Origin: a phage | Sequence record: PZ445134.1 | Reading direction: 5' to 3' (one strand) | Length of the DNA stretch: 64,000 bases | Shown: in pieces, positions 9,687-39,789 of the stretch | How the letters are laid out: every line of letters begins with the position of its first letter | How positions within the stretch are numbered: the stretch's first letter is position 1 | Notes under the pieces: model-generated | Databases searched by the model: none | What the model was told of the DNA's origin: nothing | Seen by the model: the letters and a program-made list of their open reading frames with translations, nothing else | Translations under genes and position numbers: made by a program

Positions 9687-10787
9687 TTACGCTGTGAAGA
9701 TTTTATCCCACATCGCAACAACTGCATCTCGGTTATACTTCTTCCATACTGCTTCAGCACGTTTAACTCGAGCTTCGTATGTGTCAGTGAATTCTAATAC
9801 AGCTTTTGTGTAAAGCGCAACTACTTCTTTCTTAGGAGTAGAGGAATCAATTTCTACACGCACAGTATCTGGGTCGTATTCGAATGTCGCATGAGGATAA
9901 TCCTTAAAAACTAACTGGATTACAGGGACACCTTTAGAAATGGCTTCAATAGAACTATTCTCTACTGTACCTGTGTCAGGACACGTATTAATAAGTGCTT
10001 TAGCTGTTTTAAGACGTTCCATGATTTCACTGTGTGGAGCATCAATAATAACAGGATATTTAGCTGGTGGTGCCCATTTACTAGGACAGTATCCTGCACC
10101 GTTTTCGCCTAGTGCTTTAATCGCTTCAAGAGCAACATCGGCGCGACGCATTTTAGTGTCATAACGTTGTGCACTAATAATCAGATCAGTCGCCGGAAGA
10201 ACTTCAGGTTTCTCATTCAAACAAATAACCGGATAATCTTCGGCTTCAAACAACGGATTTGCTCGCCAATAATCATAATCAATTTTGTCAGTCAGAGCTG
10301 AAGTCATATGGCAATATTTACGTTCAAATTCACGGAAGGCTTTAGTAGGAGCATAACTCTTACCACCATTCTTATGAATTTGAATAGTCTGGTCCCAAAT
10401 TTGAACAATGCCACGAGATACCGGTTCAAATGGTGTTGCCATAAAATTCTTATGAACTTTAGAGAGACCTGCGTCTTTAATTGCCTGAACGGTTAGTTTA
10501 GTCGGTTCCATAGTAACAACAAAATCGTATTCATGGATGCCGGCTAGTTCAACAATCTTACGAGCCATAGTATAACTCATACCTAGACTGAATTTAGTCA
10601 GATGACCAACAGGATGGTGTGTAACTTTCCAGTCACCAAACGTGTCATTATCAAAGCCGATATAATCAATATCAGCACCAATAGAAACTAAATATTTCAA
10701 CACATTTAAATGTACTGCTTCAAGGCCACCTTGTACACGGTCAGGATTAAATGGGACTGCACGAGATGGGATAAACATAACTTTCAT
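9687..10787 (-). CDS. GT-B fold glycosyltransferase (candidate DNA hmC glycosyltransferase)
   Basis: 366 aa; C-terminal ...TVENSSIEAISKGVPVI... resembles the E-x7-E / LEAMA-G-PVV region of GT4-type GT-B enzymes; no counterpart at this locus in T4. Confidence 0.6.
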   Translation of the reverse strand: MKVMFIPSRAVPFNPDRVQGGLEAVHLNVLKYLVSIGADIDYIGFDNDTFGDWKVTHHPVGHLTKFSLGMSYTMARKIVELAGIHEYDFVVTMEPTKLTVQAIKDAGLSKVHKNFMATPFEPVSRGIVQIWDQTIQIHKNGGKSYAPTKAFREFERKYCHMTSALTDKIDYDYWRANPLFEAEDYPVICLNEKPEVLPATDLIISAQRYDTKMRRADVALEAIKALGENGAGYCPSKWAPPAKYPVIIDAPHSEIMERLKTAKALINTCPDTGTVENSSIEAISKGVPVIQLVFKDYPHATFEYDPDTVRVEIDSSTPKKEVVALYTKAVLEFTDTYEARVKRAEAVWKKYNRDAVVAMWDKIFTA

Positions 10788-21890: not shown

Positions 21891-22412
21891 TCAGTAACCA
21901 TTATCCTGGCGTTCAAAGTTGTGTTGGTTTTTCAAGTAGTAAAGTTTAAAGATTTCTTCAGCGGAAAGACCCAGACCTTGGAACATGTTCAGGACAAAGT
22001 GGAGGATATCAATCATCTCGAATTTAATTTCAAGCTGGTCTTCAGGAGACAGTTCATCGATACGACGATTTCGATATTCAGCGTGTTGCGCCTTCCACGG
22101 TTTCCATACAGAGCTAGCGGCTTTTTCACCATTGCTCATACCACCAAGTGAAGTCAGCAGTTCACGGAATTCATCATCAATATAATCTTTCTGATTACGC
22201 AGCCAATCAACAACATCGCCAGCAGTGGCTAATTCATCAGGATGTTTGTTATGTTCAGGCTTGTCATTTGCCAGACGAACCTGTAAAGATTTCTGCATAT
22301 CAAGCATTACCTGCAGAGGGTCTTTATCTTCGTGAATCAGAGCATTAAAATAAGCTTCTTCTGCTTTATCAACACCAGAAATAAGTTGTGAACATTCGTT
22401 AAAGTGTGCCAT
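21891..22412 (-). CDS. 56: dCTPase/dUTPase (MazG-like)
   Basis: ORF track 21891..22427; likely start at MAHFNEC...; length ~173 aa as T4 gp56; synteny soc-56-61. Confidence 0.75.
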   Translation of the reverse strand: MAHFNECSQLISGVDKAEEAYFNALIHEDKDPLQVMLDMQKSLQVRLANDKPEHNKHPDELATAGDVVDWLRNQKDYIDDEFRELLTSLGGMSNGEKAASSVWKPWKAQHAEYRNRRIDELSPEDQLEIKFEMIDILHFVLNMFQGLGLSAEEIFKLYYLKNQHNFERQDNGY

Positions 22413-27430: not shown

Positions 27431-28873
27431 TTAAAATTTTAACTCATTGGCTAAGCTATCTAGGTCAGCACGTGTTGTTTTGGCTTTACCTACGCGTTCC
27501 GTACGATTCACCTCTGCCTGACGCATCTGGGCACCTGCGTTTTCATTTACTGTGTTAGGTGTGTTCATGCCTTCTTGCTCAATCTCAACCCATTTCTGGT
27601 TGCCTTTACGTACACCCATCAGGAATTTATTCCACTTATTCTTATCACCATACCGTGATTTGATTTGTTTGATAAGTTGTTGTTCAGCTTGTGCAAGTTC
27701 TTCGGTTTCAATTACGGCCAACATGAAATCTGCCGTTGCTGGTAAACCTGCTGATTCTGCAATATCGCTCATGTTCATATCCGAAGCATCCCATGCTGCA
27801 CGTCCTACTTGAGCTGCAGTCCATAGAACTGTTTCAGATTCTACTGCTAATGCACGAAGTTCTTCTGCGATAGCTTTAACTAATGTGTAGCTATTTTCAG
27901 TGTAAACTCTGATACGACAAGACCCACAAATACCTAAGTAATCAACCATGATTACAGATGGCACAAAGTTCTTCTTGAGTTTCAATTCATTAAGCAATGC
28001 ACGGAATGTATTAGCATTAGCTCCGCCAGTAGGATACTGTTTAACTACTAAACGTCCTAATGTTGTTTTTGAACGCCATTTTTCCATCTTGGCTTTATAT
28101 TCAGCATAAGATACGTTACCATCATCGATATCATCGAGCGATACGTCAAGCATGTTTGCATCTATACGCTTAGCACAAACTTCTTCAGCCATTTCCATAG
28201 AAATATAAAGAACGTTATGACCTGTTTGAAGATAATCTGCAGCAAGTGAACAAAGGCCTAAAGATTTACCGACGTTAACACCGGCCATTAAAACATTCAG
28301 TGTACCAGTTTCAGCACCACCTTTAGTGATTTTATTCAGAATGTTTAATTTGAACGGGACCTTACGTGCTTTGTTCAGATAAGAAAGCCAGCGTGCTTCA
28401 TAGTCTTCCATCCAGTCATGTCCAACATAACTATCAAACGAAATTGAAAGTGCTTGACGCATAATATCAGGAATAGCTCCTACGTCAGGCATTTTCTTGT
28501 TACGTTGTTCTGGAGGTAGTTCAGCATTAGACTGAATCTCAATGATTTTAGACGTAGCATTATACATCGCTTTTTGCTGGACATATTTCTCAGTTTCTTT
28601 AACCAACCATTCATGGTCTTCAGGAGTATCAGCCAATTTTTCAATTAGGTCTGAAGTTCCTTTATATTCTGCTTCAGTTAAAGAACTGTTATCTAAAGCC
28701 ACCTTTAATGCATTGATAGACGGCATTGCATTATATTCGTTAACGTGGCTCTTTATAATTTTAAAGACATTTTTTGCCGGTCCACGCTCAAAATACTCAG
28801 AATCCATATAAGGCCAGACCTTAGAAAAATAAGCCTGGTCATATACTAGATGAGACAAAATAATTTCTACCAC
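27431..28873 (-). CDS. 41: replicative DNA helicase (DnaB-like)
   Basis: 480 aa; Walker A AGVNVGKS; T4 gp41 475 aa. Confidence 0.9.
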   Translation of the reverse strand: MVEIILSHLVYDQAYFSKVWPYMDSEYFERGPAKNVFKIIKSHVNEYNAMPSINALKVALDNSSLTEAEYKGTSDLIEKLADTPEDHEWLVKETEKYVQQKAMYNATSKIIEIQSNAELPPEQRNKKMPDVGAIPDIMRQALSISFDSYVGHDWMEDYEARWLSYLNKARKVPFKLNILNKITKGGAETGTLNVLMAGVNVGKSLGLCSLAADYLQTGHNVLYISMEMAEEVCAKRIDANMLDVSLDDIDDGNVSYAEYKAKMEKWRSKTTLGRLVVKQYPTGGANANTFRALLNELKLKKNFVPSVIMVDYLGICGSCRIRVYTENSYTLVKAIAEELRALAVESETVLWTAAQVGRAAWDASDMNMSDIAESAGLPATADFMLAVIETEELAQAEQQLIKQIKSRYGDKNKWNKFLMGVRKGNQKWVEIEQEGMNTPNTVNENAGAQMRQAEVNRTERVGKAKTTRADLDSLANELKF

Positions 28874-28882
28874 GATAACTCC

Positions 28883-29245
28883 TTAAAAGAATTTAAATTT
28901 TTTCTTGGTCCGTTCATTAAAAGCTTGTTGTACTTGCATTGTAACACATTTTTCAACATGTGGTGCAAGTTCTGCTTTTCTGTCCTGGTCAAGAACTGCA
29001 AAGTCCATTACGATTTTACCATCAACCCAGTCTAGTTTTGTAATATAGACTATATGATGAGAACCATCTTCAAGTGTAATCAGAATCTCTTGAATGACAT
29101 TTTCCATTGCTGAACGGATAATTTTAAGAGATTCATTAAACACTCGTTCTTTGCGAATGTCTTCCCCTTCCGAAGAAGGGGATTCATCAACGATTTCTAG
29201 ATTTAAATCATCGAGATTATTCATCGAAATCTTCCATTTCATCAA
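28883..29245 (-). CDS. hypothetical protein (120 aa), gene 40 position
   Basis: located between 41 and uvsX as T4 gene 40; not verified by sequence. Confidence 0.4.
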   Translation of the reverse strand: MMKWKISMNNLDDLNLEIVDESPSSEGEDIRKERVFNESLKIIRSAMENVIQEILITLEDGSHHIVYITKLDWVDGKIVMDFAVLDQDRKAELAPHVEKCVTMQVQQAFNERTKKKFKFF

Positions 29246-30389
29246 GGTCGTTTTCTATATCTGCTGCAGACGGAGCATCAGAAGTTTTAACCGGAACTTT
29301 AGTTGTTGCTTTGCAATTAATAAGGTCATTAACAGCATCATCAACTTCTTTAATAGAAGAGATAGCACCTAGTTTATATTTAGTTTCAATTGCATCTCGG
29401 AAAGGTTTGTGTTTAAACAACGGCCCCCAGAATTCTACACAATCAGTAGCTTTAGCACGCCATGATTTTTCTTCACGAATCATTTCGCCTGTTTCTTCGT
29501 CAAGGAATTCACGAGCATACCAACCAGCTTTAGGCTTAACTACAAAACCAATTTCAGTTGCCATTTCTAACAAGCCACTGAATGGGTCGATACCACCATC
29601 AAAATTAACAGTGATCGGGAAAGTAGATTTTTCTTTAACGGTGCGAGATTTTTCTGCTTTCAACGTGAAGTCATAACCGGTCAATTCTGTACCTTCTTTA
29701 ACCTGACGTTTAGAGATAAAAAATACCGTGTTGGCAGAATAAAGAATACCTGTACCACCACCCATAATCTCTTTAGGATACAATCCGCCAATTTCCATTG
29801 CTGTATGGTTAATTGCAACACATGGAATATCTTTAATAGTCAGATAAGGAGTCACAATGCGGAACAGAGATTTAAGTGCCTTAGCACGAGACATATCACC
29901 TACGACTTTCTCGTTCAATGCATCTTCAGTTTCTTTCTTAGATGCAGTATTACCGATTGAATCGATAAAGATAATAACTTTATCACCGCGTTCAATCGCG
30001 TCAAGCTGATTAGTCATATCAACTTTAAGTTGTTCGACAGATTGAATCGGAGTATGAACTACACGGTCTAAATCAACACCCATTGAACGAAAATAAGATT
30101 CTGAAGCACCAAATTCTGAATCATAGAACAAACAAATTGCATCTTTATATTTCTTCATATATGCTGCAACCATGGTCAGCCCAAACAACGTTTTAAAGTG
30201 TTTAGAAGGAGCAGCAAAAATAGTTAAGCCTGATTGCAACCCGGCATTCAGTGCACCACCTAATGCAATATTCAACATCGGAATACGAGTAGGGACTTCA
30301 TCACGATTATTAAACAGCTTAGACTTAGTCAAGTCTGCAGTCATTTTAGAAGTAGAAGCTTTAATCAGACGAGATTTTAAATCAGACAT
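29217..30389 (-). CDS. uvsX: UvsX recombinase (RecA-like)
   Basis: 390 aa (T4 391); synteny. Confidence 0.9.
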   Translation of the reverse strand: MSDLKSRLIKASTSKMTADLTKSKLFNNRDEVPTRIPMLNIALGGALNAGLQSGLTIFAAPSKHFKTLFGLTMVAAYMKKYKDAICLFYDSEFGASESYFRSMGVDLDRVVHTPIQSVEQLKVDMTNQLDAIERGDKVIIFIDSIGNTASKKETEDALNEKVVGDMSRAKALKSLFRIVTPYLTIKDIPCVAINHTAMEIGGLYPKEIMGGGTGILYSANTVFFISKRQVKEGTELTGYDFTLKAEKSRTVKEKSTFPITVNFDGGIDPFSGLLEMATEIGFVVKPKAGWYAREFLDEETGEMIREEKSWRAKATDCVEFWGPLFKHKPFRDAIETKYKLGAISSIKEVDDAVNDLINCKATTKVPVKTSDAPSAADIENDLDEMEDFDE

Positions 30390-30488: not shown

Positions 30489-31037
30489 TTAACGAGCCCA
30501 TTTGATAATTTCTGTAATCAAATTATTACGTTCGCTTGCATTAAATCCTATAACTTTGTTAGCACCATCATGATTAAGTAATTGATACGTTTGGATTTTG
30601 TTATGAATTGCAAACTCTTCAAAATATGAAATGACTGTATTAAAACCGAATGAAGACAAAGTAATAAGGTCGTCTTCAAAACTTTCAGTCATTTCGTTAC
30701 GTGTTAAAATAATTGTGAACACATCATGGTTTTGGCAAAGACGAACATAATCCTGTTCATAAACGTCAAGAACCGAGTCCACATCTTGTCGAATACGTCC
30801 ATAAACCCAGTTACTAATATATCCACGGTCTAACAGATAAATCTTAGTAGGGTCTAAATAATTCAACATCGTTTCGAAACAGCCAACTTCATTTCGAGAT
30901 TTAACATCGAAACGTCCATCAACTGTTCGTTTAGGGAAATCAATCTTTACATATCTTTCACTAATTTCCATTATGTCATTAATGAAAGTTGTTTTACCAG
31001 CATTATCCGGGCCATCTACTAAAATAATTTTAGCCAT
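30489..31037 (-). CDS. P-loop nucleotide kinase-like protein (TMPK/dNK-like)
   Basis: 182 aa; Walker A GPDNAGKTT; LLDRGY resembles the DR(Y/H) motif of thymidylate/deoxynucleoside kinases. Confidence 0.55.
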   Translation of the reverse strand: MAKIILVDGPDNAGKTTFINDIMEISERYVKIDFPKRTVDGRFDVKSRNEVGCFETMLNYLDPTKIYLLDRGYISNWVYGRIRQDVDSVLDVYEQDYVRLCQNHDVFTIILTRNEMTESFEDDLITLSSFGFNTVISYFEEFAIHNKIQTYQLLNHDGANKVIGFNASERNNLITEIIKWAR

Positions 31038-31038
31038 T

Positions 31039-31938
31039 TTATTCCTCGATTACGACATCTTCATATTTAGGTATATTATACGGTGAAGAAATTAAAGCAT
31101 TAAAGTAGATGAACTCACCAAGACCTGGATGGAATACTTCTTCAGGATTTTCGAAATATTGAATCTTCGGTCTTCCTTTAAGAATTTGATAGTACTCAGT
31201 TTTAGTTGGTTTAAAAATTCGAATCAGCGCTTCTTCAGGATACTTATTTCTGTCGAAGCTATTATTTGGATCGGTTATATAAAGCGGTTGACCTAATTGA
31301 ATTGCACATTCAACCACTTGTTCAAAACGATAACACGGGTCACTAATTCGAAATGGATGAAAAATACCATCTAGATGAATAGGAGCCAAATCACCTACAA
31401 GACGCTGCATGATGGAAGGACGTATAACTTTCTGGGTTACGATAATCTTATTACCATCTGCACCAGCGTTAACCAGCACTTCTTTTTGACGTTCATTCAA
31501 CACAGTAGTTTGAAGTGAACGATTAACCGACAACATGTCGGTTTTTAAGAATTCGTCAATGTAAAAACGTGGTTTATTAGGGTCTGCAGTGATATTGAAA
31601 TTGAATTCTACATCAAAAGCGCCGTCATATCCAGTGATATCTGTGATTAGAAAATCACAATCATAATAAGAAATTAATGAATCAACCACAAATTCATTTT
31701 CAGACCAGAAATATTTACGAGTGTTATACGCGTTATCTTTATACCATAATGGAACAAACTTAAATTCTGGGAAAAGACGTTCGCATTCTTTAATATCAGA
31801 TGCATTACGTGGATATGTAATCACATCACCCGGATTAGCACGGTGCAAATGAAGTTGGAAGTTGCCATCCTTAAGGATAGCATACTGTCCAGTTTCATAA
31901 GACCGCATACTCAAGATAGGTACGCGGAAAATAGCCAT
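31039..31938 (-). CDS. hypothetical protein (299 aa) at the locus where T4 has beta-glucosyltransferase
   Basis: ORF track; tight spacing with flanking kinase and gene 42; no recognisable motif. Confidence 0.5.
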   Translation of the reverse strand: MAIFRVPILSMRSYETGQYAILKDGNFQLHLHRANPGDVITYPRNASDIKECERLFPEFKFVPLWYKDNAYNTRKYFWSENEFVVDSLISYYDCDFLITDITGYDGAFDVEFNFNITADPNKPRFYIDEFLKTDMLSVNRSLQTTVLNERQKEVLVNAGADGNKIIVTQKVIRPSIMQRLVGDLAPIHLDGIFHPFRISDPCYRFEQVVECAIQLGQPLYITDPNNSFDRNKYPEEALIRIFKPTKTEYYQILKGRPKIQYFENPEEVFHPGLGEFIYFNALISSPYNIPKYEDVVIEE

Positions 31939-32654
31939 TAGTCAAGGAATCCTTTAACATAATCAAAATCACGTTCAAACACATGGGCACTTACCATGGT
32001 ATGAGTATAATCACCAACTTCTACACCACATTCGTTAGCTATATAATGAAGTAATTTTCCTTGGAGATAAAAATCCAACTGCATAACAACAGCACAGTTC
32101 TGAGAACGCATATGACAGTGGGTATAAAGCTTACCATCACGAATATAATAAGTCACTGAGTCAGTACATGGATATTCAAGTGTTTCGTCTGAATCAAGCA
32201 AAGCCTGATCAGAACTTTCTAGAATTTGGAACACAACTCTTCGAGAGTTAGGTTTTTCTTTAAGTTCTTTTAGAAGAGTTGGTAACTGGGCCGCAATTCG
32301 TGGACCGTAGAAAGTGTTGAAGTTTGCAGGCAAAGCATCTGATTTAGGTTTAGAAATAAATTTAGCGACGTTAGGATATGCCTTAAATGCTTCTTCTGCA
32401 TCAGTACCACCAGAAATCATAAATTTCCAGAAATCTTCAGCATATTCATAAGAGATGCGATTAATACGTGGGTCGGTCATTTTGAATGATGAAGGGGTAT
32501 CAACAACTACTGTCATAGACCCAATTTCATTACAACGTCCAATACGAGAATCAGTAACGAATTCCGGGTTTTCTAAAATTTCACGATTGACAGCTTTAAA
32601 TGCGGATTGAAAATCTGCGGCTTTAATATATTTCATTGTGTTATGTTTTCCCAT
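31938..32654 (-). CDS. 42: dCMP hydroxymethylase-like (thymidylate synthase fold)
   Basis: 238 aa; YPCTDSV...HCHMRSQN resembles the T4 gp42 catalytic Cys region (FMCTNTV...MRSND); synteny. Confidence 0.7.
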   Translation of the reverse strand: MGKHNTMKYIKAADFQSAFKAVNREILENPEFVTDSRIGRCNEIGSMTVVVDTPSSFKMTDPRINRISYEYAEDFWKFMISGGTDAEEAFKAYPNVAKFISKPKSDALPANFNTFYGPRIAAQLPTLLKELKEKPNSRRVVFQILESSDQALLDSDETLEYPCTDSVTYYIRDGKLYTHCHMRSQNCAVVMQLDFYLQGKLLHYIANECGVEVGDYTHTMVSAHVFERDFDYVKGFLD

Positions 32655-32787: not shown

Positions 32788-32937
32788 CTAGTTGAACAGG
32801 TTCTCTTTAATCACTTTAGCCGCTTTAGTTTCAAACAGGCCCATAAGGGCCTTTTTAAGAATTTGTTCGTTGTTGTTAATTTTAATAGTCAAAATCTCTT
32901 CGTTAAGTTGGTGGTTAAAAGTTTTTCTAGAAATCAT
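32788..32937 (-). CDS. small ORF (~49 aa) translationally coupled to the upstream Cys-rich protein
   Basis: ATG overlaps upstream stop (GAATGATT); below ORF-track cutoff. Confidence 0.3.
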   Translation of the reverse strand: MISRKTFNHQLNEEILTIKINNNEQILKKALMGLFETKAAKVIKENLFN

Positions 32938-34094
32938 TCTGGGTACCTCAAAGCGTCATCAGAGTTAGTTATATCAATAATAGATATAGAGTTTTCCGAT
33001 AACCCATTTTTAGATAACTGACGTTTATAATATCTTTCACAATATGTACACGTCGTCCCACAGATTTCATTAGCACAATCGAAATCTGGATGTTTGAACC
33101 ACCTTTTTTCTAAAAAGCCATCTAACAAAGAGGTTTCAATATTTACCGTATGTGAAAACTCAGTCTCATTTTCAAGAGTGAAAATGGTCTCTAAAGGCTT
33201 CCACAATTCCAACAAATTACCTTCAAATTTTTCAGAAGCATAAGCTTCAAGAACTTTCAAAATGTAGTCTGTGCTACCTGTACGTCCTGAAACTTTGAAT
33301 TGAGTGATACCAATATCATTATAAAGTTTCAAATCTTGAGGACGAACAAAACGAGTTCTCAACCAGTTAAATGGATCTGTATCACGAGCTTTAATACAGT
33401 GCTGCATTGGATATCCATTTAAGGATTTGGCATCATCTACTGTAACATCAGTGCTATGGAAAATATAGCAAGAGTCACGATAACTACAATGTGTTGTATA
33501 CCCTTTACCAGCATTAGAACAGAACTCATTTACAAGAACTTCAAATATTATATTGTTCTTATTACAAAACTCTGCTGCACGCTTCAGGAAAGAAACTGAA
33601 CGGTTCTTATGAATTCCACAGCAGACCTTTTTGATATTATATTGGTCATGCAAGTATTTGATTTGAGTTACAGCATCGACATGTAGAATTGTTGAAACTT
33701 CAATCTCAATGTCTTTATTGACTTCACGAACAATTTCCATAACAACAGGGTTAGCGATAGTAATACGCCAAACGCCTATTGACCAAAGATACTGAACATA
33801 ATCCTGAATAGCTTTCTTCTTCCACTCAACTAGTTCTCTTTTTGAACCAGGATTTATCGTGTTGAGTGTACAGTTAAAGCAAATACCTAATTCGTTACAA
33901 CGTTTAACGTAATCTTCTAACATCTTTTTGTCAACGTCAGGAAGCCTAAAATCAGGTCTGGCTGCTACAAAAGCCATTTCTCTTGTAGAGCCGTATACTT
34001 CGTTTATCAAGCTATTAGGATAAGTTTTATTGAGCTCTACGATTTTATCAAGAAGAGCTAAATCAAAATTCGTTCCGATTTTAAAGGTATTCAT
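32934..34094 (-). CDS. Cys-rich protein of unknown function (386 aa)
   Basis: multiple Cys clusters including C-terminal C-x4-C-x3-C-x2-C (DCANEICGTTCTYC); first gene of the block inserted between 42 and 43. Confidence 0.5.
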   Translation of the reverse strand: MNTFKIGTNFDLALLDKIVELNKTYPNSLINEVYGSTREMAFVAARPDFRLPDVDKKMLEDYVKRCNELGICFNCTLNTINPGSKRELVEWKKKAIQDYVQYLWSIGVWRITIANPVVMEIVREVNKDIEIEVSTILHVDAVTQIKYLHDQYNIKKVCCGIHKNRSVSFLKRAAEFCNKNNIIFEVLVNEFCSNAGKGYTTHCSYRDSCYIFHSTDVTVDDAKSLNGYPMQHCIKARDTDPFNWLRTRFVRPQDLKLYNDIGITQFKVSGRTGSTDYILKVLEAYASEKFEGNLLELWKPLETIFTLENETEFSHTVNIETSLLDGFLEKRWFKHPDFDCANEICGTTCTYCERYYKRQLSKNGLSENSISIIDITNSDDALRYPE

Positions 34095-34148
34095 TTTTGC
34101 ATCTCGCGTTAATTGTTGCGATGGTTTTTGCAGGTCTTACTTAAATTA

Positions 34149-34550
34149 TTATAGATTCGGTTTATATGATTTAAATGTTTCGAATTCGCCTTTATTCATA
34201 AGAGCTTTGAATTCGTCAGGACGCATAGCTTTGTCGTCGATAATCCAATCATATACTGGTTTATGTGTTAGCAAATTATGGTACTTCAATCCAATGTTTG
34301 CCAAGTTCTGAATCAGACTTGGGAGAATGTCAATTGCTATACGACCAGGACCGACTGACTTCATACCACGAGCAGTGTAAAGCGTTATGGTATGCCCTGC
34401 ATCATACAGGGCATTAATGGCAGACACCATTTCGACGTCTGGTTTGAAGTTCACGTAATCACGATTGTTATTCCACTCTGTTATACAATCATCGACATCA
34501 AAACAAAGATTAAGCATGTTTTCTACACGGTGCATTAGATTCGTTCCCAT
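34149..34550 (-). CDS. HAD-superfamily phosphatase (sugar-phosphate phosphatase-like)
   Basis: 133 aa; motif I FDVDDCIT, motif II TLYTARG, motif IV YDWIIDDK. Confidence 0.6.
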   Translation of the reverse strand: MGTNLMHRVENMLNLCFDVDDCITEWNNNRDYVNFKPDVEMVSAINALYDAGHTITLYTARGMKSVGPGRIAIDILPSLIQNLANIGLKYHNLLTHKPVYDWIIDDKAMRPDEFKALMNKGEFETFKSYKPNL

Positions 34551-36220
34551 TGATGAGTGATATCGCCACCGATTGGACGATAGGAAACACCAGTTTCTTT
34601 ATCAGTTAGTACCCATTTACCAGGATTTTTTGTAATCAGAGTAGCCGTTACAGGTTCTGCTACGTCATAACTAATAGAGCCGTCCTGAAGTACACGGCCC
34701 ATGTTACGTAATTGCTTAGTCAGAAGTTCCATACCTTTATAATATGCGGCTACCGCTTTAAGTGGATTATTCTTGAAATAACCACCTAATGCAATCCAGA
34801 TAATTGCCACTGCCAAATGATGATACTCGTTAAACGAACTCATCTTTCCATATTTGTAAACTAATGGATTGATGTTAATAGTCACATTACAAGTTGTTTC
34901 ATCAATAGTAAACTGTCCCCAGGTCGGATTAGCGTTGAATTCATCATACCCTGAAACAGCATAAAGCACTTTAGCTTCGTCATACAATTTTGGTCCGTAA
35001 ATCTTGGTTTCGCCAAAATATCCACGAGGGTCGATAAACTTGACTTCGCCGTTATCAGTAATCATAGTATTACTGAAGTTCGGGTCACCATGAATAACAG
35101 AGTACTGTCCCTGAGAACGGTTATGATAACGAATAAGGTGTTCTAAAGCTTGTTTCAACATTGGCTTCAGACGTCCGATCTTAGTGTAGTTCACATGTGT
35201 GATTTTACCAAATGAATCAATCAATGGTTGAATACTTTCACAACGATCAATAACTTTCGTATAGAATTCTTTAGTGAAATCACGACGAACAGTTTCAGGA
35301 CTTACAAAATAAGTGTCTGTGCTGAATTTCAGTGCGTCTAAAATTGCATCAACAATTTGTGGACGAGCAAGACTCGATTTGGATTTAATATATTCAAATG
35401 CCGGCTTACCTTTAATGCGTTCCATTTCAAAGTTATTTTCATTAACAGAAACTAACTGAGGAACTGAATCTGATTTCACTTTAAGATACCATGAAATCTC
35501 ATCTTTCTGAAGAGCTCGGCCCTGTTCGGTTAATGCGAATTTAGTTACAGTTTCTTCACCAATTTCAACGGCATTAAAACTACGATTAAGTTCACGAACT
35601 TCATGAGCTTTTTCAAGTTTAGGCATATCACCTAAATCAATTAGATTCATAAGCTCTGATTTATTGAATGCGCTGCCGTAAAGGAATTCTACGAAATCAC
35701 GTCCTTTGCAGTATTCATGAATTTCCTCATCAGTAGAACCCATATAGAATTCCCAGTCTTTGAACTGATAAATTCCTACAACATTACCACCTGTTGAACC
35801 TACGTTAGTGATATTTTCACCGTCGAAATTATATCGACATTCGTCGCCCTTAACATAGATTGCGTTAACATTCCAAGACCACGAACCAAAATCAGGAATA
35901 ATATCGCACCAGTTAACAATTACATTATGGCCGTCTAAATCTTTGTGTAATTTAGCAAGAGCATAAGCAGAACCGTACGCTTCATCAACTGTACGAATAG
36001 TCACATTGAACCCTTCTTGCTCACAATAAGCTCGAACAGTTTCAGCAAATTTTGAATGAACTACTACAATAATTTCATCTGCGCCAAGGTCAGAATAAAT
36101 TGTATACAAATTGCTCAGAATAGTGTCTTGTTTATAGTTAACAAGCACCTTAGGAATATGATGCGTTATTGGATACAAACGAGTTGCCAGTCCAGCACCA
36201 AGAATAACAGCTTTTTTCAT
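34535..36220 (-). CDS. bifunctional sugar-1-phosphate nucleotidyltransferase (RmlA-like) / sugar kinase (APH-like)
   Basis: 561 aa; N-terminus KKAVILGAGLATRLYPIT (G-x-G-x-R-L); C-terminal HGDPNFSNTMI ... FIDPRG kinase catalytic/DxG-like motifs. Confidence 0.7.
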   Translation of the reverse strand: MKKAVILGAGLATRLYPITHHIPKVLVNYKQDTILSNLYTIYSDLGADEIIVVVHSKFAETVRAYCEQEGFNVTIRTVDEAYGSAYALAKLHKDLDGHNVIVNWCDIIPDFGSWSWNVNAIYVKGDECRYNFDGENITNVGSTGGNVVGIYQFKDWEFYMGSTDEEIHEYCKGRDFVEFLYGSAFNKSELMNLIDLGDMPKLEKAHEVRELNRSFNAVEIGEETVTKFALTEQGRALQKDEISWYLKVKSDSVPQLVSVNENNFEMERIKGKPAFEYIKSKSSLARPQIVDAILDALKFSTDTYFVSPETVRRDFTKEFYTKVIDRCESIQPLIDSFGKITHVNYTKIGRLKPMLKQALEHLIRYHNRSQGQYSVIHGDPNFSNTMITDNGEVKFIDPRGYFGETKIYGPKLYDEAKVLYAVSGYDEFNANPTWGQFTIDETTCNVTININPLVYKYGKMSSFNEYHHLAVAIIWIALGGYFKNNPLKAVAAYYKGMELLTKQLRNMGRVLQDGSISYDVAEPVTATLITKNPGKWVLTDKETGVSYRPIGGDITHQWERI

Positions 36221-36401
36221 GTTGTGGTCCTCATTGGTAAGTAGGAGTATTGTACACTATTCTAGTTAAAGCATTCATACTTTGCTTGTAGTCCAATCAT
36301 AATCCATCCGATTATAAGAGTCGGAATCATTACTGGAGCCGTTAAGCTCCAGTAGATAGTCATGACAAGCATCAATAGTAAAAGTCCTATTGTTATTGCT
36401 T

Positions 36402-37037
36402 TCATTGTTCGCCTCGTAACATGGCACCTAGTGCACCGCCAGGGTGGAACTTAAGGAAGTCATTAGAGGTAAATCCACGTTCAGACGAAAGGTTGATAGC
36501 AAACGTATCGATAAGCGCTAACAACAATGTAGTGGACATAGTCGGAGCTAGAGAATTCTCATCAACCTCTACTGCGATGCCTGTACAGAACGTATAATCA
36601 AAAAGAGCTTCGTATTCTTGTGGAATGTCTGGGTTACAATGCAACAGAATCTGTTTGACGTTCGGACGAATCATTTTAAGATGCTTAGCCACGCCTATCA
36701 TTTCTTCAGTTTTACCGGAACGACTAATATGAATCAACACATCATTAGGCGCAATGAATCCTGCATCACCGTGAGAATAATGCCCAGTGTTCAAGTACAT
36801 ACTCGGGATACCGAGTGAAGCAAATGTCTCAGAAGCTTTAGTTGCAATATTAGCATTCTTACCAACACCTGTAATAATTACTCTGCTTTCATAATTACTA
36901 AGTCCCGGGCGTCGAAGAGTTTCTAGAATAGCATTATAACGAGCAGGGTTTTGACTAATTACTTTGGCCATAGCGGCCAAAGAAGAAGCTTGTTTTATGA
37001 TTGCGTCAATAGCGATAGTAATAGGAGTAGTTTTCAT
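36402..37037 (-). CDS. SIS-domain sugar-phosphate isomerase (KpsF/GutQ-like arabinose-5-phosphate isomerase type)
   Basis: 211 aa; GVGKNANIA and SRSGKTEE SIS motifs; C-terminal HPGGALG as in KdsD/GutQ. Confidence 0.7.
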   Translation of the reverse strand: MKTTPITIAIDAIIKQASSLAAMAKVISQNPARYNAILETLRRPGLSNYESRVIITGVGKNANIATKASETFASLGIPSMYLNTGHYSHGDAGFIAPNDVLIHISRSGKTEEMIGVAKHLKMIRPNVKQILLHCNPDIPQEYEALFDYTFCTGIAVEVDENSLAPTMSTTLLLALIDTFAINLSSERGFTSNDFLKFHPGGALGAMLRGEQ

Positions 37038-37077
37038 ATTTCTCTCATTTAATTAGTTTGCCGTCCATGACATTATA

Positions 37078-39789
37078 TCAAAAATCGAACATATCGAAAA
37101 GAGATGCTTTCTTCTCGTAATCGAGTTTCGCTGCTGATGTGAATCCTTCAAGTGGTTTAATAAATGTCTTCTCAAGGAGAACAGTGTAGTCCATCCAATG
37201 AAGTACGTCGTCTTTAATTAAATCTGTGATTTCAGTACCGGAAGGCCATGCGATACATTTATCACCGAATGGGTTTCCTTCACGTAAAGGCAGAACATAT
37301 ACTTTTTCACCTTCTACAACTTGCGGTGCATCGATATTACCTTTGATAGCACGGTTATACGTCAGAATTCCACGAATATGGAATGGGCATTTGGGACCAG
37401 GGAATCCACCTACATCATATTTAGCAATGTTATTCGCAGAAGATACTGACGCGATGCTAATATAATTCAATTGACGGAATTCTTTTTCAAACTCTTTAAA
37501 ATATTCTTGTAATGATTCTTCACCTTCTTGAAGCATACGACGAATACATTCTTTAAGAGCTTTCTGTACTGCTTTAGGAGTCGAAGATTTCTGAGTCTCT
37601 AGACCCATGATTTTGAGTTTAGGCTCAGCGTAACGAGTACCTTCCATATCCCACACGTTTAATGCATAACGTTTCTTACCAGTCCAGAATCCACCAATAC
37701 CTTTAGAACCGAGTGGAGGCCCAGCGATAGCTTCTCGGTCCATGAACATTAAGTGTTGTTTATTGTTCATGTATTCACACATTTCACGGAAACCTCTATC
37801 AATAGCTGGTTCCATACGTTCACGTGCAAACTTATCTAAGAAGTCTACCCAATGGTTGGTATCACGGAATTTAGATTCACCAACCTTATCGATAATTTTA
37901 TCAGCAGATACGTAAATAGAGTCTGTATCACCATAAAGAACGAAAGCTTCACCTTCTGTGCCACAAACTTCATTCAGATATTCATTAACTTTACGTTCAA
38001 TCCACTGTAAAGCCATTTGCCCGAATGTTGTGATTGCAGTAGCATTACGCAAATCGTAATAACGGAACCAAACGTTGCCAAGTGCACCATAAAGTGAGTT
38101 GATAAGCAATTTACGGTTAATTTGGGCAGTCATACCTGCAACTTCAGTACGTTGAGCTCTAAACAACATTTCATTAAGAGATTTAGCAGACAACTTTTTA
38201 ATCTTTTCTTTAATCTCATCGCTGAAGTCGAAACGATAATCAACATCTAATGGTCCGTCAACAGAAAGATTAGGATTATGCAATGCCTCTTTAATTATTT
38301 CACCATTACGTTGAGCCGCAAGCATGTAACCTTTATGTTCTTTACGTTGATTAAAGACTTTAGTGATTTCAGTTGGAACAACACCGTCACGGTCTTTATA
38401 ATACATCATGCCGTTAGGAGAACAACTGTACACATCTGAAGGACGTTCAGCAACAGCGTTAATATAATCATGCAATGGAGCTACTTTAAACGTTCCTGCT
38501 ATTGTTTCTGGGCTAATATTCACTTGGCGAATAATACTTGGATACAGAGATGTAAGGTCGAAACTCATTACGTATTTGTATCGATTTGGAATAGGTTCCT
38601 TAACAAAAGCGCCGGGATAAGGTTGAACCGGGTGAGAACGACCTTGTGGAATCACCTTGTTCTGCTCTTTAAGGCTATTAAAAATAATAGCATCCCATGT
38701 TTTAATTGGGCTAAACACAGATTGAATCTGTATCTTAGCATAATAACCCATGTCCAAGCTCAAGTTAATGAACTGACGTTTAGCATCAATTTGCAATACA
38801 CGATACACGTCGATAATGTTATAAGAAATATATCGTTGGTGATTGCTTTCACGAAGCTTAGAAATAGGGCCGTCATATTTCAGTTTACCAACGTTCAATT
38901 CAAATTCTGAAATGTAATCCAGAGAATATGACGGTTGATTGGTAAAAGAGAATTTTTTGTAAAGGTCAATGTAATCAAGAACAGAGATACCGAACAATGT
39001 AATGATTTCACGAGAACCATACATGTTTTCGATAACTTTAACACGAGTTTTACGATGTGGTGATAAACGTTTCGCAGTAGATTCGCCAAAAATATTCTTG
39101 ATTCGGTTATACACATATGGAATATCAAATGACTCAACGTTCCATCCAGTCAAAATGACAGGAGTTTTCTGTTGCCAGAAGTTGAGATATTCCATCAACA
39201 ATTCTTTTTCGTTATCGAACGGCATATAAATGATTTTATCGATAATTTCGGATGGGACTTCATCACCGCCTTGTTCTTGAAGCTTAGCCGCAATTTCGAT
39301 AGACCATTCTTCCACATTCCCGTATGGAGAATTCAAAAGGTCAAATACGTAGAACCTGTCGTCAATTGAGTCATAATGAGTGATAGCATCAATCGGATGT
39401 TTTGCTTGTGACGGCTCAGGGAACCCGTCTGGAGATGTTACTTCGATGTCGAAGTTAGCCACACGAATTTTTGTATGGTCGTATTTGATTTCATAGTTAT
39501 AAGTGTCAGACAAATACGCCAATTTGAAATCGTCCATGCCAAGTGCTTCAAGTCCGATATCTTCCATGCGTTTAATCCATTGGGAGGCATCACGCATATT
39601 GGCGAACAACTTACGAGTACACGGCTTACCGTAGATATCGAAATATTTCGTAGCCTGACTTTCCGGACAATGAGCAAACAGTGATGGTTTATATTCTACT
39701 TCACGAGTACGTTCACGGCCGTTAGAATCGATGTAACGTTCAAAAATTGAATCACCAATCTGTTCAACCGTTAAGTAAAATTCTTTCAT
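37078..39789 (-). CDS. 43: DNA polymerase (family B)
   Basis: 903 aa; exo motif FDIEV, pol motifs KLLINSLYG and YGDTDS; N-terminus MKEFYLTVEQIGDSIFERYIDSNGRER reads like RB69-type gp43 as recalled. Confidence 0.95.
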   Translation of the reverse strand: MKEFYLTVEQIGDSIFERYIDSNGRERTREVEYKPSLFAHCPESQATKYFDIYGKPCTRKLFANMRDASQWIKRMEDIGLEALGMDDFKLAYLSDTYNYEIKYDHTKIRVANFDIEVTSPDGFPEPSQAKHPIDAITHYDSIDDRFYVFDLLNSPYGNVEEWSIEIAAKLQEQGGDEVPSEIIDKIIYMPFDNEKELLMEYLNFWQQKTPVILTGWNVESFDIPYVYNRIKNIFGESTAKRLSPHRKTRVKVIENMYGSREIITLFGISVLDYIDLYKKFSFTNQPSYSLDYISEFELNVGKLKYDGPISKLRESNHQRYISYNIIDVYRVLQIDAKRQFINLSLDMGYYAKIQIQSVFSPIKTWDAIIFNSLKEQNKVIPQGRSHPVQPYPGAFVKEPIPNRYKYVMSFDLTSLYPSIIRQVNISPETIAGTFKVAPLHDYINAVAERPSDVYSCSPNGMMYYKDRDGVVPTEITKVFNQRKEHKGYMLAAQRNGEIIKEALHNPNLSVDGPLDVDYRFDFSDEIKEKIKKLSAKSLNEMLFRAQRTEVAGMTAQINRKLLINSLYGALGNVWFRYYDLRNATAITTFGQMALQWIERKVNEYLNEVCGTEGEAFVLYGDTDSIYVSADKIIDKVGESKFRDTNHWVDFLDKFARERMEPAIDRGFREMCEYMNNKQHLMFMDREAIAGPPLGSKGIGGFWTGKKRYALNVWDMEGTRYAEPKLKIMGLETQKSSTPKAVQKALKECIRRMLQEGEESLQEYFKEFEKEFRQLNYISIASVSSANNIAKYDVGGFPGPKCPFHIRGILTYNRAIKGNIDAPQVVEGEKVYVLPLREGNPFGDKCIAWPSGTEITDLIKDDVLHWMDYTVLLEKTFIKPLEGFTSAAKLDYEKKASLFDMFDF

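Follow-up and report, generated by a model that had tools for sequence, protein, structure and literature searches.

A fused nucleotidyltransferase/kinase gene of a Mosigvirus is an ortholog of AfhE and probably serves UDP-D-arabinofuranose synthesis

The stretch of phage DNA analysed here (sequence record PZ445134.1, 64,000 nucleotides, referred to in full as the window) carries at positions 34535-36220, on the minus strand, an ATG-started open reading frame (ORF) of 561 aa that encodes a sugar-1-phosphate nucleotidyltransferase fused to a kinase, called the NT-kinase below. The gene lies in the neighbourhood of a T4-type DNA polymerase, a clamp loader, UvsX and gp41, and its DNA is at least 95% identical to that of ∼150 phage records, among them RB69 (∼98%), a member of the genus Mosigvirus, to which the window belongs as well. 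The gene and its parts were placed as follows.

34535-36220, minus strand: NT-kinase gene, encoding a 561-aa bifunctional enzyme, the ortholog of AfhE of phage HY126 and of RB69 ORF53_52c (gp52:53)
35606-36220, minus strand: N-terminal sugar-1-phosphate nucleotidyltransferase domain, ∼aa 1-205, with the signature GAGLATRLYPIT...PK at aa 8-24
34700-35593, minus strand: C-terminal kinase domain of the APH/choline-kinase (eukaryotic-like) fold, ∼aa 210-507
34538-34699, minus strand: beta-rich C-terminal tail, ∼54 aa (aa 508-561), with secondary structure and a predicted local distance difference test score (pLDDT) of 81-91

An earlier note, made from the letters of the sequence, had assigned the N-terminus to the RmlA family of sugar-1-phosphate nucleotidyltransferases and the C-terminal part to the APH/choline-kinase-fold kinases, the latter from a Brenner motif and a DxG-type loop. 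Both assignments held. The motifs lie at residues 2-19 (KKAVILGAGLATRLYPIT), 377-384 (HGDPNFSN) and 395-400 (FIDPRG), and the match is far above chance level. Pfam NTP_transferase (PF00483) matched residues 3-99 with E 8.5e-10, scoring 39.1 bits against a curated cut-off of 21.2; the G-x-G-x-R-L...K signature of this domain is intact, and its putative metal-binding aspartates are D106 and D195/D198. In the kinase domain, the beta3 lysine is K227, the alphaC glutamate is E241 and the Mg-binding segment is I396-D397-P-R-G, and the Brenner motif, H377-G-D379-x4-N384, corresponds to window positions 35069-35092. The kinase-type Pfam families Fructosamin_kin, EcKL, RIO1 and APH all matched residues 308-409, all under their curated cut-offs. 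The kinase assignment thus rests on fold and motifs and not on a sequence score. Some homologs carry a precomputed match to PF01636. The protein is spanned end to end by PHROG 4098, a family annotated as of unknown function (E 3.7e-295), and a second PHROG covers residues 211-517 alone.

Forty-seven homologs, with identities from 73% down to 29%, were aligned, and the alignment was given to AlphaFold2 as the input for a model. Across the 47, the invariant residues are G10, R14, K24, D106, D195, G197 and D198 on the nucleotidyltransferase side, and K227, E241, G378-D379...S383-N384 (the Brenner motif) and I396-D397-P-R-G on the kinase side. The model had a mean pLDDT of 94.4 and a predicted template modelling score of 0.91, with no disordered segment. 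As predicted there, the N-terminal domain has the fold of sugar-1-phosphate nucleotidyltransferases of the RmlA/GalU/MurU/HddC type, and the C-terminal domain is a bilobal kinase fold in which the beta3 Lys, the alphaC Glu, the Brenner H-x-D-x4-N and the Mg-binding Asp are all found. Such a model had been proposed beforehand as a check on the two domains, and it returned a kinase fold for the C-terminal one and an RmlA/MurU/LicC-type fold for the N-terminal one.

Searches with the protein gave a consistent picture for the first domain. Foldseek with the whole chain returned nucleotidyltransferases only among the matches listed, and the top match of a profile search against PDB sequences was HddC, a heptose-1-phosphate guanylyltransferase (E 8e-14). 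The closest solved structure to the nucleotidyltransferase domain is LicC, and LicA is among the matches to the kinase domain. In the PDB sequence and profile searches RIO2 was the best kinase match (E 0.053), and a solved structure of the NT-kinase itself did not turn up. The tail (aa 508-561) is present in the Straboviridae homologs; distant homologs (499-545 aa) are without it and cover 87-90% of the query. The conserved basic residues R213, R326, R399, K417 and K488 were considered as an argument for a phosphorylated kinase substrate, but were given no weight.

The corresponding gene of RB69 aligned at positions 28094-29780 of that genome, with scattered, largely silent differences and, in the RB69 record, a single additional C. 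When this C is removed, the two proteins differ at 2 of 561 residues (H92Y and Q233H). Because of the additional C, the RB69 reference record shows two genes, whereas the window has one intact frame. Re-sequencing by Thomas et al. in 2018 corrected the error, and the gene was renamed ORF53_52c; on expression it gave a single band, one 561-aa product, and a role in UDP-arabinose synthesis was proposed (PMC6024577). More recently, RB69 gp52:53 was described as the counterpart of AfhE of the Escherichia coli phage HY126 (Lee et al., NAR 2026, PMC13326640).

In HY126 (PP658200.1), the 562-aa protein XAN60479.1 was equated with AfhE, since the cluster has no other NT-kinase gene. It is 97% identical (545/562) to the window protein over the full length, with one gap. 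The gene order is also that of the window, running from the polymerase through the SIS isomerase, a 47-aa ORF, the 562-aa gene, a 128-aa HAD gene and a U32 gene to a small ORF, a thymidylate synthase (ThyA) homolog, a 299-aa glycosyltransferase, a 182-aa kinase and UvsX; the order around the NT-kinase in RB69 matches as well. Full-length identity of 97% together with shared gene order makes the NT-kinase the ortholog of a known, experimentally studied enzyme. It is already known, as AfhE and as RB69 ORF53_52c, and cannot count as a new discovery. The 17 substitutions and the 1-residue gap by which HY126 AfhE departs from the window protein are not expected to alter its function. Thirteen of the 17, and the gap, fall within the 38 residues of aa 228-265 in the kinase N-lobe (window 35426-35539), where RB69 has the window version; this clustering suggests that a short patch was recombined between two alleles.

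In the phage collection, homologs of the NT-kinase were found in 374 phage records from many Straboviridae genera, with hosts that include Escherichia, Acinetobacter, Klebsiella, Vibrio, Serratia, Proteus, Yersinia and Shewanella. The view that such an enzyme is unusual for a phage does not survive these numbers, and the gene had been singled out in RB69 in 2018 (PMC6024577). Little about the NT-kinase is therefore new, the RB69 gene having been pointed out then and a 97%-identical enzyme having reportedly been characterised biochemically. The gain lies in correct annotation, as most of the 374 records label the gene 'hypothetical', 'GlmU' or 'mannose-1-phosphate guanyltransferase'.

With a probability of about 0.88, we assign to the NT-kinase, as an AfhE ortholog, the activities of a D-arabinose-5-phosphate 1-kinase and a uridine diphosphate (UDP)-D-arabinofuranose pyrophosphorylase, working in the pathway set out below. 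The other genes that bear on this pathway, or lie among those that do, are these.

36402-37037, minus strand: SIS-only arabinose-5-phosphate isomerase, 211 aa, RB69 gp55 (Pfam SIS, E 1.7e-10; PHROG 5670; RB69 annotation)
36262-36405, minus strand: hydrophobic 47-aa mini-ORF (MKAITIGLLLLMLVMTIYWSL...), between the isomerase and the NT-kinase, overlapping the isomerase stop codon
34149-34535, minus strand: HAD-superfamily phosphatase AfhF, 128 aa, RB69 gp51 (PDB 9iqw, E 1.8e-87; 1xpj, E 4.9e-10)
32934-34094, minus strand: U32-family protein, 386 aa, RB69 gp50 (Pfam Peptidase_U32, E 6.3e-11; weak UbiU match)
31938-32654, minus strand: thymidylate-synthase homolog, 238 aa, RB69 gp48, a flavin/O2-dependent synthase of 5-hydroxy-deoxycytidine monophosphate (5-hydroxy-dCMP; function from PMC13326640)
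31039-31938, minus strand: glycosyltransferase, 299 aa, RB69 gp46:47, 'arabinosyltransferase 1' (PHROG 3891; RB69 annotation; PMC13326640, Table 1)
30489-31037, minus strand: thymidylate-kinase-like nucleotide kinase, 182 aa, RB69 gp45 (PHROG 761; RB69 annotation; PMC13326640, Table 1)
21894-22412, minus strand: dCTPase, gp56 homolog (tblastn, 97.1% identity; RB69 annotation), a source of dCMP that also clears dCTP from the pool
9690-10787, minus strand: second DNA arabinosyltransferase, homolog of RB69 ORF003c, 366 aa (tblastn, 98.6% identity, full length; PMC6024577, PMC13326640)

The SIS, NT-kinase and HAD genes are adjacent in the window. The isomerase matched the NCBIfam models KpsF/GutQ (E 2.2e-32) and KdsD (E 1.2e-30), and the HAD protein matched TIGR01689, a capsule-biosynthesis phosphatase (E 4.3e-13). 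For AfhF, the longest ORF begins at 34550 (133 aa), but the start annotated in RB69 and HY126 corresponds to the ATG at 34535 (128 aa), which overlaps the NT-kinase stop codon as TAATG, and this is most likely the true start. The overlap implies translational coupling of AfhE and AfhF. The ThyA homolog differs at 3 of 238 residues from PDB 9iqc/9ir2 and is near-identical to 9iqu also; these entries and 9iqw, a near-identical match to AfhF, are most likely structures from the HY126 study of He et al.

The DNA of RB69 contains mono- and di-arabinosylated 5-hydroxycytosine, not hydroxymethylcytosine, and the hydroxyl is put on dCMP by the thymidylate-synthase homolog using flavin and O2 (PMC13326640). 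Arabinosylated deoxycytidine was measured in a Mosigvirus (PMC13390438). The text of PMC13326640, a second-hand source in that it cites in vitro experiments with HY126 (He et al. 2026), states that AfhE phosphorylates arabinose-5-phosphate to the 1,5-bisphosphate, that this arabinose-5-phosphate is made de novo from ribulose-5-phosphate, and that AfhF is a Mg-dependent phosphatase which acts on the 1,5-bisphosphate, downstream of the AfhE kinase step. D-arabinose had been named as a candidate sugar from the sequence, and this literature on the 97%-identical AfhE bears the choice out.

In the proposed pathway, the SIS isomerase, encoded by the upstream gene, would convert host ribulose-5-phosphate to arabinose-5-phosphate. 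The C-terminal APH-fold kinase domain would then phosphorylate the anomeric hydroxyl at the expense of ATP, giving arabinofuranose-1,5-bisphosphate, from which the translationally coupled AfhF would remove the 5-phosphate. The resulting arabinofuranose-1-phosphate would be joined with uridine triphosphate (UTP) by the N-terminal RmlA/MurU-like domain to give UDP-arabinofuranose. Finally, the arabinosyltransferases (31039-31938, and the ORF003c homolog at 9690-10787) would move arabinose onto 5-hydroxycytosine in replicated DNA, and the arabinosylated DNA would be protected from host nucleases. Because the bisphosphate would be dephosphorylated by AfhF between the kinase and nucleotidyltransferase steps, the fused activities would be steps 2 and 4 of the pathway, which are non-consecutive. 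The pathway is of practical importance, since arabinosylated 5-hydroxycytosine gives these phages, of which many are candidates for therapy, a shield against restriction enzymes and CRISPR.

The two folds, the intact catalytic residues, the orthology and the gene linkage were established in the present analysis, and at 97% identity the window copy probably carries out the same reactions as HY126 AfhE. Several points count against the assignment of these reactions. The AfhE activities and the order of the steps are reported for HY126, at second hand, and XAN60479.1, which was taken to be AfhE by its architecture and position, is labelled hypothetical in GenBank. The kinase Pfam scores are low, at 14.4 bits against a cut-off of 23.2 for APH (PF01636), 17.1 against 22.4 for Fructosamin_kin and 16.2 against 22 for EcKL, and our computations do not discriminate UTP from other nucleoside triphosphates (NTPs). 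A homolog from Shewanella phage Thanatos (54% identical), which is essential for propagation, showed no pyrophosphorylase activity with xylose-1-phosphate and any NTP (PMC12838424); this fits a strict sugar specificity, yet it stays a negative result. Lastly, Table 1 of PMC13326640 gives the order arabinose-5-phosphate, free arabinose, arabinose-1-phosphate, in contradiction to the paper's own text.

The order in that table leads to the most serious of the alternatives, in which the HAD protein would free D-arabinose (or the sugar would be scavenged), the kinase would act on it at C1 and the nucleotidyltransferase domain would follow, so that the two domains would catalyse consecutive steps. 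Consecutive steps would be the simplest explanation of the fusion, and the APH-fold anomeric kinases NahK and AmgK act on free sugars. However, the HAD protein is similar to phosphatases of bisphosphates and of capsule pathways, and HldE/GmhB provide a precedent for fusing non-consecutive steps. The published evidence is divided: the roles given in Table 1 of PMC13326640 to DLP3 gp81/82 and RB69 gp51/52:53 are exactly those of this alternative, whereas the text of the paper, citing the in vitro HY126 work, gives the 1,5-bisphosphate and then AfhF. The earlier note had likewise proposed the salvage of a free sugar by consecutive steps, and this idea is corrected by the published, second-hand account of an arabinose-5-phosphate substrate and an intervening AfhF (PMC13326640). 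A free-sugar route nevertheless keeps a small share of the probability, because Table 1 lists its order, the bisphosphate order is known at second hand and our computations do not discriminate between the two orders of the kinase and phosphatase steps.

Far less probable is a fused pair like LicA and LicC for the activation, in place of arabinose, of a small alcohol or a different sugar (choline to CDP-choline, xylose or a deoxypentose). The best solved structure for the N-terminal domain is indeed LicC, with LicA among the kinase matches, and a role with xylose or a deoxypentose was proposed for the Thanatos homolog (PMC12838424). However, xylose-1-phosphate gave no activity with that homolog (PMC12838424), arabinose was measured in the DNA of RB69 and of a Mosigvirus (PMC13326640, PMC6024577, PMC13390438), and the link to an arabinose-5-phosphate isomerase is conserved, with isomerase and NT-kinase even fused in other organisms. 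In Streptococcus pneumoniae, LicA and LicC are separate proteins that use choline/phosphocholine and cytidine triphosphate, with 11-20% identity. That the N-terminal domain is a glycosyltransferase acting on DNA, a reading derived from an old 'GT-A superfamily' domain match and the Thanatos study, can practically be dismissed, since every top match is a nucleotidyltransferase, the G-x-G-x-R-L...K signature is intact, separate GT-B arabinosyltransferases are encoded within the window and the Thanatos homolog made no transfer to DNA in vitro (PMC12838424).

The two folds of the NT-kinase recur in AmgK and MurU of N-acetylmuramic acid/N-acetylglucosamine recycling, an APH-type anomeric kinase and a MurU-type uridylyltransferase; MurU (4y7t/u/v) is among the top structural matches of the NT-kinase. 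AmgK and MurU differ in being separate proteins that act on a free amino sugar (true salvage), with no phosphatase step. The bacterial and plant enzyme FKP is a bifunctional L-fucokinase/GDP-fucose pyrophosphorylase, which like the NT-kinase has its nucleotidyltransferase N-terminal and its kinase C-terminal in one chain, but its kinase is of the GHMP fold, its substrate is free fucose and its steps are consecutive. The ADP-heptose pathway runs from the GmhA isomerase through the HldE kinase and the GmhB phosphatase to the HldE nucleotidyltransferase. It shares with the pathway proposed here its four steps, catalysed by a SIS isomerase, an anomeric kinase with a sugar phosphate as substrate, a HAD phosphatase and a nucleotidyltransferase, and HldE also fuses the two non-consecutive ones. 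In HldE, however, a ribokinase-fold kinase comes first and a cytidylyltransferase-fold domain second, whereas the NT-kinase has an RmlA-like domain first and an APH-fold domain second. Neither of the two folds that make up HldE was thus found in the NT-kinase, and HldE is an analog, with folds that are not homologous. The domain order had been described beforehand as the reverse of that in several characterised bifunctional enzymes, which is right for the kinase-first HldE and wrong for the nucleotidyltransferase-first FKP.

The linkage of the pathway genes was also found outside T4-like phages. Distant homologs of 890-955 aa have the Pfam order HAD, SIS, NTP_transferase, APH-like kinase, that is, three phage genes in one chain. 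Fusions of the HAD-SIS-NT-kinase type were noted earlier in Butyrivibrio (Thomas et al., PMC6024577); the four-domain HAD-SIS-NT-kinase fusions and the jumbo-phage cassette described here are additions of this analysis. One four-domain fusion of 926 aa (P0084; L002:8001-10781; GCA_013558355.1, contig JACCDH010973257.1) lies amid RNA polymerase subunit and MutS-HNH genes, on what looks like a giant virus contig within a eukaryote assembly, and a similar protein of 955 aa (P0091) was found in a set of eukaryotic transcriptomes. In giant viruses, this nucleotide-sugar route may be used for glycans. A 35% identical NT-kinase (P0082; L005:5135-10997; JGI 3300056750) was found on a 350-kb jumbo-phage-like contig, surrounded by genes for a SIS protein, a GT2 glycosyltransferase, a HAD hydrolase, a ThyA homolog, a dCMP deaminase and a T4 EndoIV-like protein. 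The cytosine-glycosylation cassette therefore reaches well beyond T4-like phages. Five homologs of 777-790 aa (P0106, P0108, P0111, P0112 and P0116) have ∼230 extra residues C-terminal to the NT-kinase, and in P0106 this region gave a weak signal of a cupin-type mannose-6-phosphate isomerase; these proteins may represent a variant for another sugar, with a cupin isomerase in place of the SIS enzyme.

Within the AfhE/AfhF pathway, it is conceivable that the two proteins form a channelling complex from which arabinose-1,5-bisphosphate is never released, the 54-residue tail being a possible docking element. This is suggested by the TAATG coupling, by the AfhF-type HAD domain fused in the four-domain homologs and by the presence of the tail only in the homologs of T4-like phages, in which AfhF is separate. 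We regard such a complex as rather unlikely.

Outside the NT-kinase finding itself, the most interesting feature of the window is the U32 gene (32934-34094, minus strand), which sits between the HAD gene and the O2-dependent hydroxylase and appears also at L009:4983-6394 and L008:6001-7161. In PMC13326640, the RB69 gene is given only as a 'sugar or heterocycle reductase'; the known tRNA pyrimidine-hydroxylation pathways are stated there not to use homologs of the ThyA-type enzyme, and there is no remark that the U32 neighbour belongs to a family of tRNA pyrimidine hydroxylases. U32 proteins include RlhA, which is responsible for 5-hydroxycytidine in 23S rRNA (PMC5727448), TrhP, which is responsible for 5-hydroxyuridine in tRNA in a prephenate-dependent manner, parallel to a second pathway (PMC6599085), and UbiU/UbiV, which use prephenate as oxygen donor (PMC10990095).

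The phage U32 gene is at least 80% identical in all of the carrying phage records (222/222), even where the NT-kinase is only 42-54% identical, and the named hosts of these phages are facultative anaerobes throughout. No Acinetobacter phage was found among the matches listed for U32, compared with 57 Acinetobacter phage records with the NT-kinase. Because ∼40 Escherichia records have the NT-kinase and are without U32, the gene is accessory. A chorismate mutase is present in 48 phage records, whose hosts include Klebsiella, Serratia (LC53 among them), Yersinia, Enterobacter, Edwardsiella, Erwinia, Pectobacterium, Providencia and Morganella. Chorismate mutase makes prephenate. In nearly all of the matches listed, the chorismate mutase match abuts a thymidylate-synthase-type gene, and that of Klebsiella phage KLB31, with the U32 gene on one side and the ThyA homolog on the other, was confirmed (Pfam CM_2, 38.5 bits).

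When the phage U32 protein was aligned with UbiU, UbiV and RlhA of E. coli, the columns of E185, T200, C209, G270 and Y277 were kept, and the clustered cysteines C192, C203 and C209 fell at the position of the RlhA Cys cluster; the pairwise similarity in this comparison is weak (20% identity, E 0.041). Given the U32 hydroxylase precedents, the prephenate dependence of TrhP and UbiU/V, the chorismate mutase neighbour and the conservation of the gene, we put forward, purely as a hypothesis, that the phage U32 protein is a candidate for an oxygen-independent, prephenate-dependent route to 5-hydroxycytosine in anoxic infection. No mention of this idea was found in the accessible literature, and it may already be addressed by He et al. 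or Mahler et al. The gene raises the question of whether a phage of gut bacteria hydroxylates cytosine without oxygen.

The ORF that follows U32 (32788-32937, minus strand) has 49 aa in the window, 79 aa in RB69 (p049) and 40 aa in HY126, the size differences being due to 1-2 nt indels in the area of a single short A-rich run. Either decay of the ORF or sequencing errors in some of the records could account for them. RB69p049 and its window equivalent were considered as a diverged chorismate mutase; although the position is that of the chorismate mutase in other genera, there was no Pfam (CM_2) match and the DNA aligned poorly to the Klebsiella phage gene, and the candidate was rejected. A scan of 34000-37200 for promoters and terminators gave 11 promoter-like sequences, against 11.4 in shuffled sequence, and 3 terminator-like ones, against 2.0. 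As these counts are about those of shuffled sequence, no regulatory claim is made. The strongly hydrophobic 47-aa mini-ORF, just upstream of the NT-kinase, has an annotated counterpart of the same size in HY126 and in KLB31 (Kanagawavirus); the KLB31 annotation notes a transmembrane domain, which would place a small membrane protein within a nucleotide-sugar cluster. In the window, one ORF encodes the 299-aa glycosyltransferase, whereas the RB69 reference record has it in two pieces, p046 and p047, which Lee et al. put down to a second sequencing error there (PMC13326640).

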